In this document: in pieces, positions 912 to 55,700 of the stretch | Position numbering within the stretch: position 1 is the first letter of the stretch | Layout of the letters: the number at the start of each line of letters is the position of its first letter | Assembly (NCBI RefSeq): GCF_032062105.1 | Contig: NW_026939778.1 | Span: forward strand, 682,001 to 746,000 | Length of the DNA stretch: 64,000 nucleotides | Direction of reading: 5' to 3' | From: Saccostrea cucullata | Lineage: Eukaryota | Position numbers and translations under genes: made by a program | Notes under the pieces: generated by a model | Database searches by the model: none | What the model was told of the DNA's origin: nothing | What the model saw: the letters and a program-made list of their open reading frames with translations, nothing else

Positions 912-3900
912 AAACAATTTTTCAAAATGCTACTCCTCCTACAGTTTTGGTCCGATTTCAATATAACTTGGCACACAAGTAGACTACACTAAGATACATA
1001 ATTCTGTGCATCGGTTTTTGATTTTGATGAACGGTGTTGCCATGGTTACTAAAAATAGAAATTTCTGTGAAATTCTTTCAAAATGCTACTCCTCCTACAG
1101 TTTTAGTCTGATTTCAATATAACTTGGCACACAAGTAGACTACACTAAGATACATAATTCTGTGCATCGGTTTTGAATTTCGATGAACGGTGTTGCCATG
1201 GTTACCAAAAATAGAAATTTCTGTGAAATTCTTTCAAAATGCTACTCCTCCTACAGTTTTGGTCCAATTTCAATATAACTTGGCACAAAAGTAGACTACA
1301 CTAAGATACATGATTCTGTGCATTGGTTTTTGATTTCGATAAACGGTGTTGCCATGGTTACTAAAAATAGAAATTTCTGTGAAATTCTTTCAAAATGCTA
1401 CTCCTGCTACAGTTTTGGTTTGATTTCAATATAACTAGGCACACAAGTAGACTACACTAAGATACATAGTTCTGTGCATTGGTTTTTGATTTCGATGAAT
1501 GGTGTTGCCATGGATACCAAAAATAGAAATTTCTGTGAAAGACTTTTAAAATATGCTACTCCTCCTACAGTTTTGGTCTGATTTCATTATAACTTGGCAC
1601 ACGAGTAGACTACACTAAGATACATAAAGATGTGCATCGGTTGTTTGATTTCGATGAAAGGTGTTGCCATGGTTACTAAAAATAGAAATTTCTGTGAAAT
1701 TCTTTCAAAATGCTACTTCTCCTACAGTTTTGGTCTGATTTCAATATAACTTGGCACACAAGCAGACTATACTAAGATACATAATTCTGTGCATTGGTTT
1801 TTATTTTGATAAGTGGACCATTTTCTATTAATTGCTGTTTTAAAGTTTCAAGTGGCTACTGCTACTTTTCTCTTCCTTTGTTTTAAGTATAAACCAGTAG
1901 AGCTACAGTCTCGATAGAGACTTCTGGTTTTGTCACATAGGTTGGGAGATTGCACAAACTGAAATGGAATTTAAAATGTATGTACAGGCTGCCTAAAATC
2001 AGGGCTCCCACTGGACCGAAAATATTTTTCGCCACTTTTCGCGACAAAAGGAAAGGCATATTTACATCTGATTTTTCGAAATTGCAATGCACTTTATGTT
2101 AGTCCTTTTTTTAGCTCTACTGGTCAGAGACCAGAAGAGCTTATGCGATAGTAATGCGTCCGTCGTCCGTCCGTCTGTCTGTCTGTCTGTCCGTCTGTCT
2201 GTAAACAATTTTTCAAAATGCTACTCCTCCTACAGTTTTGGTCGGATTTCAATATAACTTGGCACATAAGTAGACTACACTAAGATACATAATTCTGTAT
2301 ATCGGTTTTTGATTTCGATGAACGGTGTTGCCGTGGTTACTAAAAATAGAAATTTCTGTGAAATTCTTTCAAAATGCTACTCCTCCTACAGTTTTAGTCT
2401 GATTTCAATATACCTTGGCACACAAGTAGACTACACTAAGATACATAATTCTGTGTATCGGTTTTTGATTTCGATGAACGGTGTTGCCGTGGTTACTAAA
2501 AATAGAAATTTCTGTGAAATTCTTTCAAAATGCTACCCCTACTACAGTTTTGGTCGGATTTCAATATAACTTGGCACACAAGTAGACTACACTAAGATAC
2601 ACAATTCTGTTTATCGGTTTTTGATTTCGATGAACGGTGTTCCGTGGTTACTAAAAATAGAAATTTCTGTGAAATTCTTTCAAAATGCTACTCCTTCAAC
2701 AGTTTTAGTCTGATTTCAATATAATTTGGCACACAAGTAGACTTCACTAAGATACATAATTCTATATATTGGTTTTTGATTTCGATGAACGGTGTTGCCG
2801 TGGTTACTAAAAATAGAAATTTCTGTGAAATTCTTTCAAAATGCTACTCCTCCTACACTTTTAGTCTGATTTCAAAATAACTTGGCACACAAGTAGACTA
2901 CACTAAGATACACAATTATGTTTATCAGTTTTTGATTTCGATGAACGGTGTTGCCGTGGTTACTAAAAATAGAAATTTCTGTGAAATTCTTTCAAAATGC
3001 TACTCCAAATACAATTTTAGTCTAATTATAATATAAATGTGGCATGCAAGTGGACTGCACTAAGAACAAAAGAGACTTAATCAAGGATCATTATTCTATT
3101 TATTGCTGTTGAAAAGTTTCAATTTCCAACTGCTTAAGTACTTTTCTCTTCCTTTGCTATAAGTACAAACCAGTAGAGCTTCAGTCTCGACAGAGACTTC
3201 TGGTAATTATTTTGCCAAGAAAGAGAGACCAGTTATTTAATCCAAGCATGTATCAACACGGGTGATAACTCGAGTTCAGTGCTTTTACTAGAGAGTTCCA
3301 AATGTAAACACGGCGTGTAAATTTTAGGTGAGAAAAAAACCAAACGTTGAGAAAATTAGTTATGTATATTTTTGTCTTTATTTGGATTATATTTTAGGTT
3401 AAAAGGCATACACAACCTCTAATTAATTTAGAAGTTATTTTCAGTGCAAATCCTTTTGTATTTTTATCTTCAAAATTGTTTCGGAGCGATTCTGCAATTT
3501 CTTGCCACGTTGCAAGTATATTGGTGGTATTCTAACTGTGCATACTAAATTGAAACATAAACTGATATGAAAATCTTAAGGGATTTTTAGGTCACCTGAG
3601 TAAACTCAGGTGACCTATTGCTATCTGTTTTTGTCCGTCGTCGTCCGTCGTGCGTCGTGTGTTAACATTTGAACATTTTCAGCTTCTTCTCTGAAACCAC
3701 TGAACCAATTTTAACCATATTTGGCACAAAGCAGGTATGGGTGAAGGGGAACAAAAATTGTGAATTTCATGATCCCTGCCCCCCTGGGGCCTGAGGGGTG
3801 GGGCCAAAACCACTGAAATTAATGCAATCTTTAAAAATCTTCTTCTTTACTCCTGGACATCAAGCAGTCAAACTGTTTGCATGATTGTAATCAGCAATGA

Positions 3901-6900: not shown

Positions 6901-9900
6901 AACAGATCAGATGTTGAACTTTTTTGCTGAGATATTTTAAATCTTTTAATTTAATGTAAATCTATAAAATACTGCACAATATGTAATTGGTAAATTTAGT
7001 TTAAATCATTTATCAGAACTTGTCAATGTATAAAAAAAAAAGAAATTTTAAAAAAAGGGGACATGAAAAATAAAGATTTAAAACTTTTCTTATGTGTGTA
7101 TCAAATGTTAGGGAAGTATTTGAAGTATTTATAGGTTGATAATGTTGATACTAGAAGAAGAACTTGGAATAATACTGTTATAAAAGTTTCATAACCAATC
7201 TTGACTATGCTTTTATAGGGTAAACCTGTGGGTACCCCTGACCCTGGGGTTTACTTCCGGATTCTGAAGGAACATGATGTAGCAGGGATGTTTGTAGCCC
7301 CCACTGCAATCCGAGCCATTAGGAGAGAGGTGAATTGATAAATCCCATAGTATATTCATAGTAACTGTACTAACTGATTTATATAACTGTTGTCTAATAA
7401 GGGAGTGAAATCTTTGCTTTACCAATAAACCGTTTGTTGATCTTAATTTTTTAGGACCCAGATGCCTCTTTTGCTCAGAAGTACCTTCCACTGCCAAAGT
7501 AAGTAAAATAAAAATGAATTGTACTGGTAAAATTTTATACAGGGGCCATATCTTATGATTAACCAGTCTCTGTATTTTGACCTGTATTTTGACCTCTGTA
7601 GATTTTGAATTGTGTCACATTTACAAGTATCTGTGCATCTTTCTGTATTTTGACACATGTAGGGTTTGAGTATAGAAAGATTTACTTGACTGTATCCGTC
7701 TGTGTTTTGATCTTTGTAGGTTTTGAGTATTGTCAGATTTTTTTTTTTTATCTCTTCCTTATTTTTATCTCAGTCAGTAGATTTGAGATAAAGGTGTATC
7801 TAGTTTTTTTTTTCTCTGAAGATTAAGATAAAGGTGTATCTATTTCTAATCTCTGTAGGTTTGAGATTTAAATGTATCTATTTTTCATCCCTGCAGGTTT
7901 GAGATTTAAGTGTATATATTTTTCATCTCTGTAGATTTGAGATATCTATTTTTGATCTCTGTAGGTTTGAGATATCTATTTTTGATCTCTGTAGATTTGA
8001 GATATCTATTTTTGATCTCTTTAGATTTGAGATACTAGTATCTATTTTTTGACATCTGTAGATTTGAGATATCTGTTTTTGATCTCTGTAGATTTGAGAT
8101 ATCTATTTTTGATCTCTGTAGATTTGAGATATCTATATTTTGATCTCTGTAGATTTGAGATATCTATTTTTTGACATCTCTAGATTTGAAATATCAATTT
8201 TTGATCTCTGTAGATTTGAGATATCTATTTTTGATCTCTGTAGATTTGAGATATCTATTTTTGATCTCTGTAGATTTGAGATATCTATTTTTGATCTCTG
8301 TAGATTTGAGATATCTATATTTTGATCTCTGTAGATTTGAGATATCTATTTTTTGACATCTCTAGATTTGAAATATCAATTTTTGATGTCTGTAGATTTG
8401 AGATATCTATTTTTGATCTCTGTAGATTTGAGATATCTATTTTTGATCTCTGTAGGTTTCGAGGTTTGTTTGTGGCAGGAGAACACTGTGACAAGGAGAC
8501 TCTGGAGTTTGCTCACTCTGTACTGCAGGCTCCTATACTGGACAACTGGTGGCAAACAGGTCAGTATTAAAAATGATACATGTCTATACATGAATACTAA
8601 ATATTTCTACAAGTTTATAAAATCATTATGAATTAGACAAATATCACAGTAATAGATAAATTTGATAATTCCATGTAATTGAGCATTTTGTAACCAAATA
8701 CATGTACATACACCTGTACTGATGTGAATGAGTTGTGGGTGTGTGATACCTTTATTTATTTACAGAGACGGGGTGGGCCATCAGTGCGACATGTGCAGGG
8801 TTAAATATGTCCTTGTCCCCACCCTCAGGGGCTGCTGGGAAATCGGTACCGGGCTGGAATGGTAAAAAATTAATATACATAGGACAAATTAATAGTTTTA
8901 ATGAGCATTTAATGAGTCATTGTTTACTGAAAAACTAAGTTTTTGTTTGTTTGTTTTTTTTTAATTGCTTACAATCCAGTTTCTTTATAGTTCAGGTTTT
9001 AAGGAAGGATTTCTCACAGGCTTCCACTGGTGAGCTGGGAGACATTGTTGTCAAGTAGGTCTTGTGTAGATACAGTCAATTATACATACAATCTAATGTA
9101 ATATGTACCATGTATAAATATTTAAGATGTAAATAGACTTATTTTATTTGAAGAAAGAGTGAACATAGAGGTATGGACATGGTGATAGTATTGTTGAGTG
9201 AAATGTCAAATTTTCTTTCCTTAGGTTGCCTTTACCACCTGGAGCATTTAGTACCCTGTGGAAAAATGAGGAGCGATTCAAAAAGACTTACTTTGAAAGC
9301 AAACCAGTATGTTTTCCATTTTCTGTTTATCCAGTTGATTTGTAAATCAGATTGTAGATTGTGTATGCAGAAATTACATAAAAATAAAGTATCTTAGTTT
9401 TAAGAGAAAAATAAGATCAAGATTTTCAACATTATAAGTACATGTATTACAGATATCAGGTTTATTTTTAATAAATTGTAAGTGAAATTTTGCTTATGGA
9501 ATAGATCACAACAAGTTAGGTACTCACTGAGTATGTTTTTTCATCATTTTTGTTCTATACGACTAGTTTATAATCATTACAAGTTGGGTACTCATTGAAC
9601 AAGTTTTATCATGATTTTTATTCTACAGTTGTCTTCTGCCATTACAGGGTTACTATGACACCATGGATGCAGGCTACAAGGATGGAGAGGGCTATGTTTA
9701 TGTCATGGCCAGAAGTGATGATGTCATCAACGTGGCGGGCCACAGACTCTCGACGGGTGCAATAGAAGAGGTAGCCACTTTTATACTGGAAATAATGTCC
9801 ATTTGAATAAAGAGAAGAATGGCTGCCAAAAGAATTTTTTAGGCTGAAAAAAGTCAAGATGCACATTTTTATAAATGTTCGATTTTTGTACATGTACTAG

Positions 9901-11332
9901 AAGTGTAAAATGTTGTCATAGAGCATTGAAAGCGCACACTCTATTTAGTTTAGCCTGATCAATTAATGCATATTAAATGTCAAGGTACTACTGTTCCTTA
10001 ATAATGAAAGCAATACAATTTTTTTTTTCTATATCTACATGTATTTGTAGGCAATCATGACGAGTGAGGATATAGCTGAGGTGGCAGTGGTGGGAATACC
10101 TGACACACTCAAAGGTCAAATACCGCTGGGACTGTGTGTACTAAAACATGGTAAGTATACACAGTACTAAAACATGGTAAGTACACAATGACTAATATAC
10201 ACTCAAAGGACAGGTACCACTAGGACTGTACATACTAAAATGTGGTAAGTATACTAAATACCTAAACATGTAAGTACAAAGTACTAAAACATGATAAGTA
10301 CTTAGTGACCAAAATACAGGTACCAATGGGACTTTGTACTAAAACATGATAAGTATACAGTGACTTAAAGACATCCTCAAAAGACAGGTAATATGGTTCA
10401 TACACAGTGTTCTGAACATCAAAGCTTATTTAGAAATAGTAACGAATTGGTGAAGAAATATTCTGATCTTTATTTTTGAATAATTGGAAATTCTGATAGA
10501 AATATTTTTATTTTACAATTTTCCTTGATTTAAACAGGAGTGCAGAAGTCAGCAGATGAAGTTATAGATCATGTCCGAGATGTAGTGAGAAGCAGCATAG
10601 GACCAGTGGCCGCCTTCAAACTCGCGGTTATTGTCCCAAAGCTACCAAAGACTCGAGCTGGGAAGATAGCTCGTAGCACCATAGCTCTCATGGCAGCTGG
10701 TCAGCCATTCAAAGTAAGCAACTAATATGTGGTATTTGAATAAATACCTTTTATCCTTATTTTGATACAACTGATGATACTCAAGTGACCATCAAGGCCC
10801 ATGGACTTTGTTTCTTTTATATGTTGTGCATGCAGTTATGATAGATAAACTCTTTAAAAAATTGATTACTGTAGATCACTAAATTTTCACGACACCTTAT
10901 TTTCGCGAGATAGTCATTGACTCTTAATTAGCGAGACAAAATTTTCACGAATTGTGGTTCTTGCTCTTTATAATCTTAAGAAATGCTATTATACACGAGA
11001 ATTAAATTTTCTCGAGCACACTGTCACGCATAATTATGCAAAAATAAAGTTCTCGCGAATAAAAAGTGATTTACAGTACCTACTTGTAGTACAAGGTTGG
11101 GTAGGTATTTAACAAGTGGTGAGCTAATAAAATCTAAGAAGCCAAAATCTAGGAAAGCTATTTATGAAAAGTGTTTCTAAGTTTGACTGCTACATTATTT
11201 TATAAAAAGAAATCTCAGGTTTGATGAGATATGTTTTTGCACCCTTTGTAGATTCCAGTGACTATTGAGGATGCCTCTGTGTATCCGTACATCCGGGACG
11301 CTCTACAACAGATTGGCTATGCCAAAGAGTAA
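151..11332 (+). CDS. ACSS3: Acyl-CoA synthetase short-chain family member 3 (propionyl/acetyl-CoA synthetase), 5'-partial, with proximal last exon
   Basis: Phase-consistent GT-AG exons 151-339, 5718-5849, 5987-6130, 6613-6693, 6798-6893, 7219-7329, 7455-7498, 8456-8559, 8766-8861, 8991-9054, 9225-9306, 9648-9770, 10051-10150, 10538-10713, 11252-11332 (TAA). Encodes the AMP-binding motif YILYTSGTTGLPK plus SDLGWVVGHSYICY, YEGKPVGTPD, DNWWQTETG, RSDDVINVAGHRLS and PKTRAGKI, typical of ACSS3/PrpE. N-terminal exons lie upstream of the window. Confidence 0.95.
816..1931 (+). mobile_element. Helentron/HINE (DINE-1/CvA-like) non-autonomous element with 156-bp internal tandem array
   Basis: T-run insertion site, subterminal IR agctctactgg/ccagtagagct, 5' hairpin, (GTCY)n microsatellite at about 867-910, about 5.6 copies of a 156-bp unit from 921, 3' stem-loop agtctcgatagagact. 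Confidence 0.85.
2106..3204 (+). mobile_element. Second copy of the same HINE family with 156-bp array
   Basis: Same termini, microsatellite and 3' stem-loop as 816-1931; units start at about 2212, 2368, 2524, 2679, 2835 and 2991. Confidence 0.85.
3584..5524 (+). mobile_element. HINE-like element of a different family, interrupted at about 4220-5270
   Basis: 5' tttttaggtcacctgag..ctcaggtgaccta hairpin, gtcc/gtcg microsatellite, degenerate internal repeats, 3' ctcaggtgaccta plus aggcccgtgggcct stem-loop. Confidence 0.75.
7565..8455 (+). repeat. 30-bp minisatellite (ttttgatctctgtagatttgagatatctat) whose last unit is the ACSS3 acceptor
   Basis: 18 regular units with AG ends from 7934 to 8455, degenerate copies back to about 7565, and a 182-bp higher-order repeat (8140 vs 8322). 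Confidence 0.92.
10104..10392 (+). repeat. Degenerate tandem copies of an ACSS3 exon 3' end and donor (gtactaaaacatg/gtaagta)
   Basis: The motif recurs near 10138, 10164, 10233, 10261, 10281 and 10337; 10199-10250 copies the last ~46 nt of the exon plus donor. Confidence 0.8.
10869..11076. mobile_element. TA-flanked MITE
   Basis: TIR ctgtagatcact / agtgatttacag with TA on both sides. Confidence 0.75.
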
Positions 11333-12437: not shown

Positions 12438-12530
12438 GTACCAGCCACTCTAGAAGATCCAGAAGTCTATTCCAAACTGAAGGTGTCTTTTGAAGAAGCA
12501 GGGTTTACTGTTGGAGAACCACAATATTAA
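12438..12530 (+). CDS. ACSS3: Alternative (duplicated) terminal coding exon of ACSS3: VPATLEDPEVYSKLKVSFEEAGFTVGEPQY*
   Basis: Acceptor tgtgtatctgttgtag ends at 12437; phase 0 matches the donor at 10713; 30 open codons; P-x-T-[IL]-E-D-x-x-V-Y shared with exon 11252-11332. Confidence 0.8.
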   Translation, partial: VPATLEDPEVYSKLKVSFEEAGFTVGEPQY

Positions 12531-15347: not shown

Positions 15348-16456
15348 CGGAAGCCCGTTGGTGCCACATACGAAAAATATTTTATCTGGCGGCCGCCACT
15401 TATTATTTGGCGGCCGCCACTTGTATATCTGGCGGCCGCCACATAATTATGTGGCGATCGCCACTTATTATTTGGCGGGCGCCACTTATATATCTGGCGG
15501 CCGCCACTTAATATATGGCGTTCGCCACATAATTTTTATGGTGGCCGCCACATAGTTTTTATGGCGGCCGCCACATATTTTTCTGGCGGCCGCTATATAA
15601 TATCTGGCGGCCGCCACATATTTTTCTGGCGGCCGCTATATAATATCTGGCGGCCGCTATATAACATCTGGCGGTCGCCACTTATTATTTGGCGGCCGCC
15701 ACATGTTTTATCTGGTGGCCGCCACTTATTTAATTGGTGACCGCCAAATATTTATCTGGCGGCCGCCACTTATATATCTGGCGGCCGCTACATAATATTT
15801 GGCGGCCGCCAGATAACACCTGGCTTCCTGAATCGCGCGCATGTTTTAATGTGTGGTTTAAGAGGTGGATACAGTGTAAAAATTATAATAGCAACATCAA
15901 TCAACCAAACTTGTAAGAGATTTATTATGAACCAACACTCCAATCCACACTTCTAATAGATATGTTTTTGCATAGAGCAGATTAATATTTGATTTGAATT
16001 ATGCAAGTATTTGTACTGTGTTTCGATTATTAAGAAGCCTCATCAGGGGTCACGGATATAAATCATGGTTTTTGCTGTAAGCTATGATTGGTTGAGAATT
16101 AAATGAAGTTTTGCATTTTGGATTTCCAAGAATGGTGTTCCAATATTTCAGAATTTGTTAACTTTTTTTTATCAATAAGCAGCGGTTGTGTCAACACCCA
16201 ATAACACTCACCTTTTGCAAAATAATTTATGTGGCGGCCGCCATATAAATTATTTGGCGGCCGCCAGATATATAAGTGGCGGCCGCCAGATATTAAGTGG
16301 TGGCCGCCAGATACATAAGTGGCGACCGCCAGATATATATGTGGCGGTCGCCAAATAATAAGTAACGGCCGCCAGATATATATGTGGCGGCCGCCAATTA
16401 ATAAGTGGCGGCCGCCAGATAAAATATTTTTCATACGTGGCACCAACGGGCTTCCG
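15348..16456. mobile_element. Foldback-type TA-flanked element with arms made of TGGCGGCCGCCA repeats
   Basis: TIR cggaagcccgttggtgccac / gtggcaccaacgggcttccg with TA flanks; about 20 units (21-23 bp) in the left arm and about 9 inverted units in the right arm; AT-rich spacer about 15815-16225. Confidence 0.88.
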
Positions 16457-44697: not shown

Positions 44698-50113
<5,416 letters not shown>

Positions 50114-52728: not shown

Positions 52729-55700
52729 CTAGCGTGCGGAGTCTACTAAATCCAGGCTGATCTTGTAGTACACGTACGGGTAGTAGTCTACGTTACTGAG
52801 TCCTACTAAACCTGGAATCTCCATCTGTCCTGCCTACAAACAGAAGAAAATTTATACATTATTACATGTGCTTATTGGTACTTATATGAAACAGAACTTT
52901 ACAATTTACAACACTTGGCATGATTTTTTTTCTTCTCATTTTTTACTATACTCTTAGACATAATTTCAGTCAGATTTATATCTAGAGTTCTCAGACTTGA
53001 AATAATCTCATTTCCTTCTCTACAATTAAGAAATTACAAAAATGTCTGTAGCTTTTGATTGACAGACTACAAGATCATAAAATTCATTTATGTATCCATA
53101 AAAGACAGAGAGTGGAGAGAAAACGTACATCTTGTGATGCTGGAGAGTCTAAATGAGCATACAGCTGGTTCAGAACTTCTCGTAATTTTCTGGTTGTCTT
53201 CTTGTGGGGCTGCATTAACACAGCCAAGAAATTGACAGGTAAGCCATATCTACAATGAACCAGCCTTATTTTTATAAGTATAAATTACACTCATTATTAA
53301 TTTACCCTGCATTAAGAAATTATTTTAAAAATTCATAGGACTTTAATTATATGAATCCATAAACACTTTCAACAAGGACAAGAAAAAGACCACCTTGACC
53401 ATCTTAAAAACACACACCTTAGAACTGATTCCACAAATATTCTTAATGCTTTGACATGGATCCAAGCAGAGAAGCTTTCTCCAAAGTTTACTTTAAGCCA
53501 TTTAACCAGCGGACCCTGAAAAATATGATGACAAATATCACAAGGCAAACCTCATTAACACAAATTTGAGGCATTGATAAATCTTGCAGTTTTGACCTAA
53601 AATCTATGAAAACAGATTATCCAATAACCTTGAAAATTTGTTAATCACAGCAAAAAGTTCATCATTTATAATCAATTTGTTCTTTTATTGTGTGGTGTCA
53701 AGACAGATTTGTTTGCCAGATAGCTCAATTGGTAGAGCACCTGACCGGAGATTCAGAGGGCCTGGCTGGAATCTCTGTTTGGTCTGTTACATTTTCCCCT
53801 TACCTGTTACATTGGTGTGGTGACCAGGAAAATATGATCCAAAAATGTCACGGGAAAGGGGGGAAATGAGACACACTAGACAGGGATTCAAACCAGGGTC
53901 CCCCTAAATCTCAGTCAGGTGCTACACCAACTGAGCTATCTATCCATTAACAATTGAATCCATCTGACCATCACAACTGTTAAATCTGATGTACTGAATT
54001 GTTTACCTTTAAAGGAAAAATGGTATCTAATATCTTTTTTTAAAGTTTTCTTGGAAATACTCACATATAATTTCTTCTTGTCATCCTCCAGCTTTGAGAC
54101 TTCCATTTTCCCATCTGCAATGTCTTTTTCATTATAAGTGAAATCCCTCACCATAAATCTGAAAACATTAATGGAATTCTGTCATTTTTTCCCCAAAAAA
54201 GACCGCTGTCCACATATGGCAAATATTTCCAAAGCAAGTTTTCTTCACAAAAATCAATATTATAATTTTTCTAAATAAGATGCAGGCCATGAGCCAAACA
54301 GATCTCCTGATTGAGTCACTTCTTCCCTGATTGACTTTATCTAATGGCTTTTTAAACAGGAACATTCCTTGTATTGTTGGTTTGTACAGTTGTCTTAACC
54401 TGTTGTAATGCCAGCTTTGAACAAACTTGAAACAACATTATAGTGGACTTTGGACTTTTGTGTTTTCAGAGGTTTCAAAATATGCTGACAATTTTTGGCC
54501 CTCCTTTTTTAAAGGAGATTCTTCCGAAAAAGATAAAGAAATTCTCTATATTCTTAAGTAGAGTACTTAATTCCCTATAATGTCCCCATTCTTTCAAAAG
54601 GGCCATATCATATATCAAAATACATGTATCTACACAAGGAGGGTTTTCATATTTTCTATGGACCACAAGTTCATGATTTTTTTTTTCAAATTACCCTATC
54701 TTTGAAATTTCCTTTCAGGAAAATTACAATTATTTTCTTTTGGTCAATACACTGAATTAGAATAAATGTATAATTTAAACACCATTTAGAAGCATTTCCA
54801 GCAGAACTAAGTGTTTGAATGCAGTATTAAACCTACTTGTTCTCTCTACATCTGTTTTTGAAGTCTTCCGCCACTTTTCTGAAAAGTGTCACTGAGCATA
54901 GGCAGTTCTCATCATCTTCAAAAAGAGTCCTGAAACATTAAATTATTATTATTAAATTATATATATAAACAAGAGGTCCAGGGGCCACATCACTCACCTG
55001 AGCACTGGCTAAGAAAAAACCCCCAAAAAAATCTGTATAGTTTTAAAAAGCTTAAATGCATAAGTGTTCTTGACCTACCCCCTTAAAAGAGAGAGGGGGT
55101 ATGATTTGAACAAAAATAAATCTACACTAACTAAGCATGCGTACATACTTTTTTGATTGACTTTTTTCCTACGAGTTTGAACTTTCATTGTGGCCCCACC
55201 CTACCCCAGGGTTGAATCTACACTACTTAAGAATGCTTTCATCTGAGTTTCATCTTTCCTGTCCCAGTGGTTCTTGAAATGAAGATTTTTAAAAGATGCC
55301 ATTAATTCATCGCTAATTCATAATTATCTCCCCTTGGCTGTATATAAACAAAACTCACCTAGATGATCTAGGAACAATCATATCTGTCAGTGTTTCATAT
55401 TTAGCCTGCCAATCATGGATGATGTTTCTGAAATTACCGGTAAGATATCATTAATTATTGCTCAATTAAGTTTGTACTTTATTAAATCCCTGAAAAAAAA
55501 AATCTGACATCTGACACAGAATTCTAATGTGAAATGCTCCATTTGATTTTAAAATTTCCAGCTACTATATACCGTAATTTTCGGGTTATAGGTCGATACT
55601 TTATTTACTCAGAAAAATATATGAATTCGACCATTCTAAGGCTCAAGTTTACGAAAAAATGCCCCCAAATCAATAAAATTTACGTAAATTTCAGAGCAAA

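Follow-up and report, generated by a model that had tools for sequence, protein, structure and literature searches.

A junction-spanning minisatellite with probably tolerated decoy acceptors in an oyster ACSS3 gene

Repeats that cross splice junctions

The closest described relatives of the repeat reported here are the mirages of amphioxus, tandem repeats that run across an intron/exon boundary at either side (PMC3087553, PMC3902484). The available text of these papers describes them in Adh3 and in the globin genes BflGb6 and BflGb9 (PMC3087553), with PGBD5 and troponin C as further host genes (PMC3902484). In the BflGb6 mirage the 3′ end of the intron and the start of the next exon are repeated in 3–6 copies, and the units of the Adh3 mirage measure 10–72 bp (PMC3087553, PMC3902484). 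Many units are described as keeping an AG or GT and evolving in concert, with regular splicing undisturbed (PMC3087553, PMC3902484).

In humans, junction-spanning VNTRs on the donor side have been reported for F7 intron 7 (37 bp), CBS intron 13, LMNB2, PDGF intron 4 and 6-16 (PMC1557585). According to the available text of that paper, F7, LMNB2 and PDGF use the authentic site only, and in CBS intron 13 and 6-16 the two nearest pseudo-sites are also used. Human CBS 844ins68 is a duplicated intron/exon junction at which, in the available text, splicing strongly prefers the downstream copy and yields normal mRNA (PMC2630376), and splicing-altering tandem repeats (spl-TR) have been catalogued in humans (PMC10078293, abridged text). 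Our literature search, from which subscription papers were mostly excluded, returned no paper on an acceptor-side VNTR, none on a junction minisatellite in oysters and, by title, no mirage paper on molluscs.

The repeat described here precedes an exon of ACSS3 in the oyster Saccostrea cucullata. Judged from its sequence it is a mirage, a junction-spanning minisatellite of the kind already described: minisatellite-sized units lie head to tail, each unit carries both sides of the junction, the terminal unit overlaps the site that is used, and the origin is local.

The ACSS3 gene and its acceptor array

The window, a stretch of 64,000 nucleotides (positions 682,001–746,000 of contig NW_026939778.1), carries a collinear chain of ACSS3 exons on the plus strand from 148 to about 12500, as mapped with four ACSS3-like proteins, the 5′ end of the gene lying outside the window. 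A single-exon protein search returned ACSS3-like proteins, including Ostrea edulis ACSS3 isoform X2; most exons are 74–100% identical to the Ostrea edulis ACSS3-like isoform X2 (P0003), and the ACAS_N, AMP-binding and AMP-binding_C domains are present in the ACSS3 homologue. The features around the array are as follows.

7455–7498, plus strand: upstream ACSS3 exon of 44 nt with a phase-2 GT donor after 7498, located by tblastn with an oyster-like ACSS3; its letters are the loose ends before 8457 in RNA reads.
7565–7934, plus strand: older degenerate acceptor-like units of 37–61 bp, with unit ends at 7601, 7662, 7719, 7780, 7821, 7858, 7896 and 7934.
7935–8455, plus strand: young array, with units of 30 or 31 bp apart from a single 37-bp one and a higher-order repeat of 182 bp, defined by TRF and cut at the AG of each unit.
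8454–8455, plus strand: AG of the true acceptor, from protein mapping and RNA reads; its intronic signals come from the last array unit.
8456–8559, plus strand: ACSS3 exon of 104 nt (FRGLFVAGE...NWWQT), 50% GC against 26% in the array, from protein mapping and RNA reads.

The ACSS3-like proteins P0001–P0003 run from LPLPK into FRGLFVAGE without an insert (P0009 lacks that stretch), and this continuity fixes the junction at 7498/8456; spliced reads also join donor 7498 to acceptor 8455. In the assembly we found a single copy of the exon and no second haplotype of the array locus. Two candidate alternative last exons of ACSS3 were also seen, one at 11252–11329, matching the C-terminus of P0001, P0002 and P0009, and one at 12438–12524, matching that of the Ostrea edulis isoform X2 (P0003) at 55% identity. 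A read joint from 8557 to 8765 with one G between (three reads in run X9, one in run X10) is best read as a synonymous variant beside the normal 8559/8766 junction, with no new splice form.

TRF describes a period of 30 in 17.9 copies with 89% matches at 7913–8459, inside which a 182-bp higher-order period recurs three times, and a 38-bp period at 7835–7943. Upstream of 8455 lie 17 near-identical AG-ending units, with ends at 7934, 7964, 7994, 8024, 8061, 8091, 8121, 8152, 8183, 8213, 8243, 8273, 8303, 8334, 8365, 8395 and 8425, confirming the count given in a sequence-only reading that had placed the acceptor at the end of a 30-bp array. Seven of the 17 are identical to the true acceptor over its last 25 nt; the identity extends over 37 upstream bases for 8425 and over 67 for both 8273 and 8303. 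Before them come about seven older, degenerate units of 37–61 bp, with ends between 7601 and 7896. Each young unit consists of a decayed exon start, a pyrimidine tract and an AG, and the 38-bp unit type starts with about 17 nt that resemble the exon start. The same reading had drawn attention to units of the form ag/gtttgag. Such units exist, but they number only one of the 17 (7964) plus two older ones (7858 and 7896), most units reading ag/atttgag. The first base of the exon is A in both transcript sources, in keeping with this majority form; the A is synonymous, and relative to the commonest unit start the real junction has one extra base.

Searched across the 1.17-Gb assembly with at most one mismatch allowed, a 24-nt unit pattern occurs 14 times, always inside the ACSS3 array, and its reversed control never. 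Of nine units examined, the two best follow 7858 and 7896; their opening 17 nt share 13 identities with the first 18 nt of the exon, and their score of 7 is reached by 3 of 6494 other AG-following 17-mers in the window; the motif [AG]TTTGAG or [AG]TTTCGA follows none of the 6496 other AGs. On the exon side of the junction the likeness covers 13 of 18 nt in the 38-bp type and about 7 nt in the 30-bp type, the intron side being identical. The unit after 7719 aligns to the exon start without an internal gap and has a T in place of the C of the exon's CG, and the units suggest that the exon start decayed by a C-to-T change and then by the loss of one T. The suggestion that the array derives from the junction itself is upheld by the locus-private unit and by the decayed exon-start copy at the start of the units, and it is likely that the unit arose from the ACSS3 intron/exon junction. 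Unit size shrinks toward the exon, from 57–61 through 38 to 30 bp, from which we infer that the array probably grew last at the end nearest the exon.

A dispersed-repeat origin of the array was considered and rejected: the unit is private to the locus, and the one other match in a DNA search of the assembly, weak (69%) and outside the array, appears to belong to a different minisatellite. The latter is a separate tandem repeat of about 33 bp, at about 1500–1980 of L004, whose resemblance is probably a chance likeness of T-rich units.

When each of 28 ACSS3 splice sites was compared with its own intron (two boundaries being approximate and one off by one base), junction copies scored above all 200 null stretches at two, acceptor 8455 and donor 10150, which points to junction duplication as a recurrent process.

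10105–10358, plus strand: second junction-derived repeat, at the donor after 10150, from TRF and the junction-copy test.

Here further copies of the donor keep GT at 10176, 10244 and 10269 and have decayed to AT at 10293 and 10348, and two copies carry about 50 nt of the exon end; by these sequence features the repeat is a donor-side mirage in ACSS3.

Other repeats and genes were noted in the window. Two arrays of one 156-bp unit, about 5.5 copies each and each following (GTCT)n, occupy 874–1897 and 2157–3065 in a long ACSS3 intron; we take them to resemble oyster non-autonomous Helitron-type elements with central repeats. A 21–22-bp GC-core minisatellite forms two arrays in opposite orientation at 15382–15824 and 16227–16421, which might, at a guess, be the two termini of a foldback-like element. 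The plus strand carries, at 46051–50113, exons of a gene with leucine-rich repeats (Pfam LRR_4), presumably dynein assembly factor DNAAF1/LRRC50, and the minus strand has, at 53939–54181, an exon with a match to V-ATPase subunit C (PF03223) that at E 2e-4 does not reach the curated cut-off.

Acceptor choice among near-identical sites

Between 7500 and 8455 there are 60 AG dinucleotides, five of which are followed by an open frame: 8455, 8425, 8395, 8365 and a weak GAG site at 8341 that was absent from the earlier list of in-frame acceptors. Three are array decoys.

8364–8365, plus strand: decoy AG lying 90 nt upstream; by frame scan it keeps the frame and meets no stop.
8394–8395, plus strand: decoy AG lying 60 nt upstream, with the frame kept and no stop by frame scan; it sits immediately outside the stretch used for read alignment, but its use would place reads on 8396–8442, where none were seen.
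8424–8425, plus strand: decoy AG lying 30 nt upstream, likewise in frame with no stop by frame scan; no use seen in RNA reads.

These spacings and open frames had been correctly predicted, as had the non-productive nature of the distal acceptors, since all 21 more distal unit acceptors run into TAA or TGA inside the array. The older 37–38-bp units are out of frame, with early stops, and among shuffled units read in one fixed frame 47% lack a stop; these comparisons give no support to selection for an open frame. The in-frame run needs none, given the 30-nt unit length and the share of shuffled units that are stop-free, and the frame pattern as a whole follows from unit length together with the 182-bp higher-order repeat. 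An insert would sit just before the conserved AGE segment, in a region in which a 1-residue gap is all that separates three solved homologues from oyster ACSS3, and in this position it would be more likely to harm than to benefit the enzyme. A weak protein search, with the in-frame units plus the exon as query, gave no insert-bearing ACSS3 among five matches (seven candidates), all five being from other species and covering the exon part only (55–58% of the query).

Four read or contig sets (X1, X2, X9 and X10) were aligned to 8396–9800, so that the distal decoys are reached only indirectly. Raw poly(A) RNA from a related species makes up X9 and X10, two runs of one study, with 62 and 55 aligned reads that are mostly 90–99% like the window exons and never 99% or more. 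X1 consists of DNA contigs of the same species, and X2, labelled DNA by guess, yields spliced sequence about 99% identical to the window exons, as assembled contigs, a form in which rare variants are dropped. In 10 reads of X9 and 8 of X10 the loose ends before 8457 have the letters of the upstream exon, and all 18 of these junction reads join it to the exon-proximal AG at 8455, the junction also found in X2. RNA depth is zero over 8396–8442 among the 117 aligned reads of X9 and X10, and no loose end at 8426 is listed in the aligned RNA. Splicing at the array is regular in these 18 reads and one contig, at low depth and without an NMD block, and the absence of decoy use from 18 reads limits the decoy share to about 15% at most in steady-state poly(A) RNA, in which forms removed by NMD could go unseen. 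The sequence-only reading had posed two possibilities, and it is the first, that the spliceosome ignores the decoys, that agrees with these data; the second, that copy number tunes the productive versus NMD fraction or adds decapeptides, finds no support, either in the RNA, which leaves that interval empty, or in the five matched proteins, which carry no insert.

The related species also carries acceptor-like decoys, as its unit-like DNA contigs indicate. A unit-to-unit joint with 12 letters between corresponds to a 38-bp unit, a loose end resembles the 38-bp unit of the window, and the summed contig depth (1175 versus about 52 at 8396–8442) fits an array and is not a copy number. A contig over 8416–8554 shows seven differences and no gap; if a 38-bp unit stood immediately in front of the exon, 14 mismatches would be expected over 8416–8455, so the exon-proximal unit of this species is probably 30-bp-like.

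We consider it most likely that the array is a minisatellite of ACSS3 junction copies whose extra acceptors are probably skipped, and which is tolerated, only the last copy preceding an exon and a donor. A duplication across the junction, of about 17 nt of exon and about 21–40 nt of intron, would have been followed by slippage or unequal exchange, leaving old units of 57–61 bp farthest from the exon, then those of 38 bp, and the young 30/31-bp ones adjoining it, with the functional acceptor homogenised together with the array. The acceptor would be chosen by exon definition, and any transcript that leaked to the distal sites would run into a stop and probably be degraded, making the array cheap to carry. 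Since decoys 8273 and 8303 match the true site over 67 nt, a length expected to take in both the pyrimidine tract and the usual range of branch points, the choice must depend on the downstream side. After 8455 comes the 104-nt exon, 50% GC and 55% purine in its first 60 nt and closed by a donor; after a decoy comes U-rich repeat of 26% GC and 40% purine. Exon definition is an established account of splice-site choice, the classic duplicated-site experiments reportedly being those of Reed and Maniatis, and it appears to be the simplest account of last-copy choice here.

A low-level, unselected leak, in which the nearest decoys would be used in a few percent of transcripts to give rare inserts of 10–30 residues or NMD substrates, is unlikely. 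A decoy share of up to about 15% is compatible with the 18 reads, 8425 matches the true site over 37 upstream bases, and human CBS intron 13 and 6-16 are described as using proximal pseudo-sites (PMC1557585, available text); however, none of the 117 aligned RNA reads (62 from X9, 55 from X10) falls on 8396–8442, and the amphioxus mirages are reported without aberrant mRNA in the text available (PMC3087553, PMC3902484). We regard as very unlikely a length-variable cis-acting dial in the oyster's own species, in which the nearest three acceptors would add 10–30 residues, the distal ones would lead to NMD and alleles would tune ACSS3, all hidden in the steady-state RNA of a related species. Highly improbable, too, is a functional dial in the wider sense, in which array length or the position of the 31-nt units would set the productive versus NMD fraction, or decapeptides would change the enzyme. 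The division between three in-frame unit acceptors and 21 of 21 distal ones that meet stops would suit such a device, related units persist in a second species, and human tandem repeats can alter splicing (PMC10078293, abridged text), but the frame pattern is explained by unit length and the 182-bp repeat, with 47% of shuffled units stop-free, and the insert would precede the conserved AGE segment, where the three solved homologues vary by a 1-residue gap only. No decoy use is seen in the RNA, no insert in the five homologous proteins, all of other species, and any length polymorphism is hypothetical, the assembly having yielded a single copy of the exon.

RNA folding offers an extremely improbable means of masking the decoys, each decoy AG being held in a short hairpin with the next unit and the last AG being left without a partner. 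Short fragments around 8303 and 8425 do place the AG in a 6–7-bp stem (about −4.5 kcal/mol), and the unpaired probability is 0.15 at 8425 versus 0.36 at 8455, but the true site is no more accessible than decoys 8365 (0.44), 8183 (0.38) and 8024 (0.36), 12 other ACSS3 acceptors span 0.07 to 0.68, and 8214–8500 folds weakly (z = −1.64, with 7 of 200 shuffles folding equally well). With an effect so weak and inconsistent across decoys, hairpin masking as the main mechanism is not supported. That the array is an assembly artefact has a nearly negligible probability. In the oyster's own species the array is taken from the assembly; against an artefact, the units carry ordered variants and a 182-bp higher-order repeat, and DNA contigs of the related species hold like units beside the exon. 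The exact copy number could nevertheless be mis-assembled.

Comparison with described systems

The importance of the ACSS3 array is modest: it extends mirages to oysters and provides a clean natural substrate for testing 3′ splice-site choice. With two decoys identical to the true site over 67 upstream bases, a rule of 'first suitable branch point, then first AG' fails to account for use of the last copy, and if the window species splices as the aligned reads do, it is the downstream exon context that must decide. A length-dependent dial, if true, would matter more; nothing seen supports it. In a spl-TR, repeat length goes with splicing outcome across individuals; at the ACSS3 array no alternative junction was observed in the aligned RNA reads.

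Compared with the CBS 844ins68 allele, a single 68-bp duplication in the text available (PMC2630376), ACSS3 carries an array. As in the human VNTRs, many identical pseudo-sites lie beside an authentic site and the site touching the exon wins; those described in the available text repeat the donor (PMC1557585), whereas the ACSS3 array repeats the acceptor, the 10105–10358 repeat of the same gene being of the donor type. The likeness to the amphioxus mirages, as far as the available text describes them (PMC3087553, PMC3902484), is that the ACSS3 array spans a boundary and keeps an AG in its units. It differs from them in its oyster host, in its 17 plus about seven copies against the 3–6 of BflGb6, in a young unit whose exon-derived portion has dwindled to about 7 nt, and in the homogenisation of the intron part of the last unit with the array.
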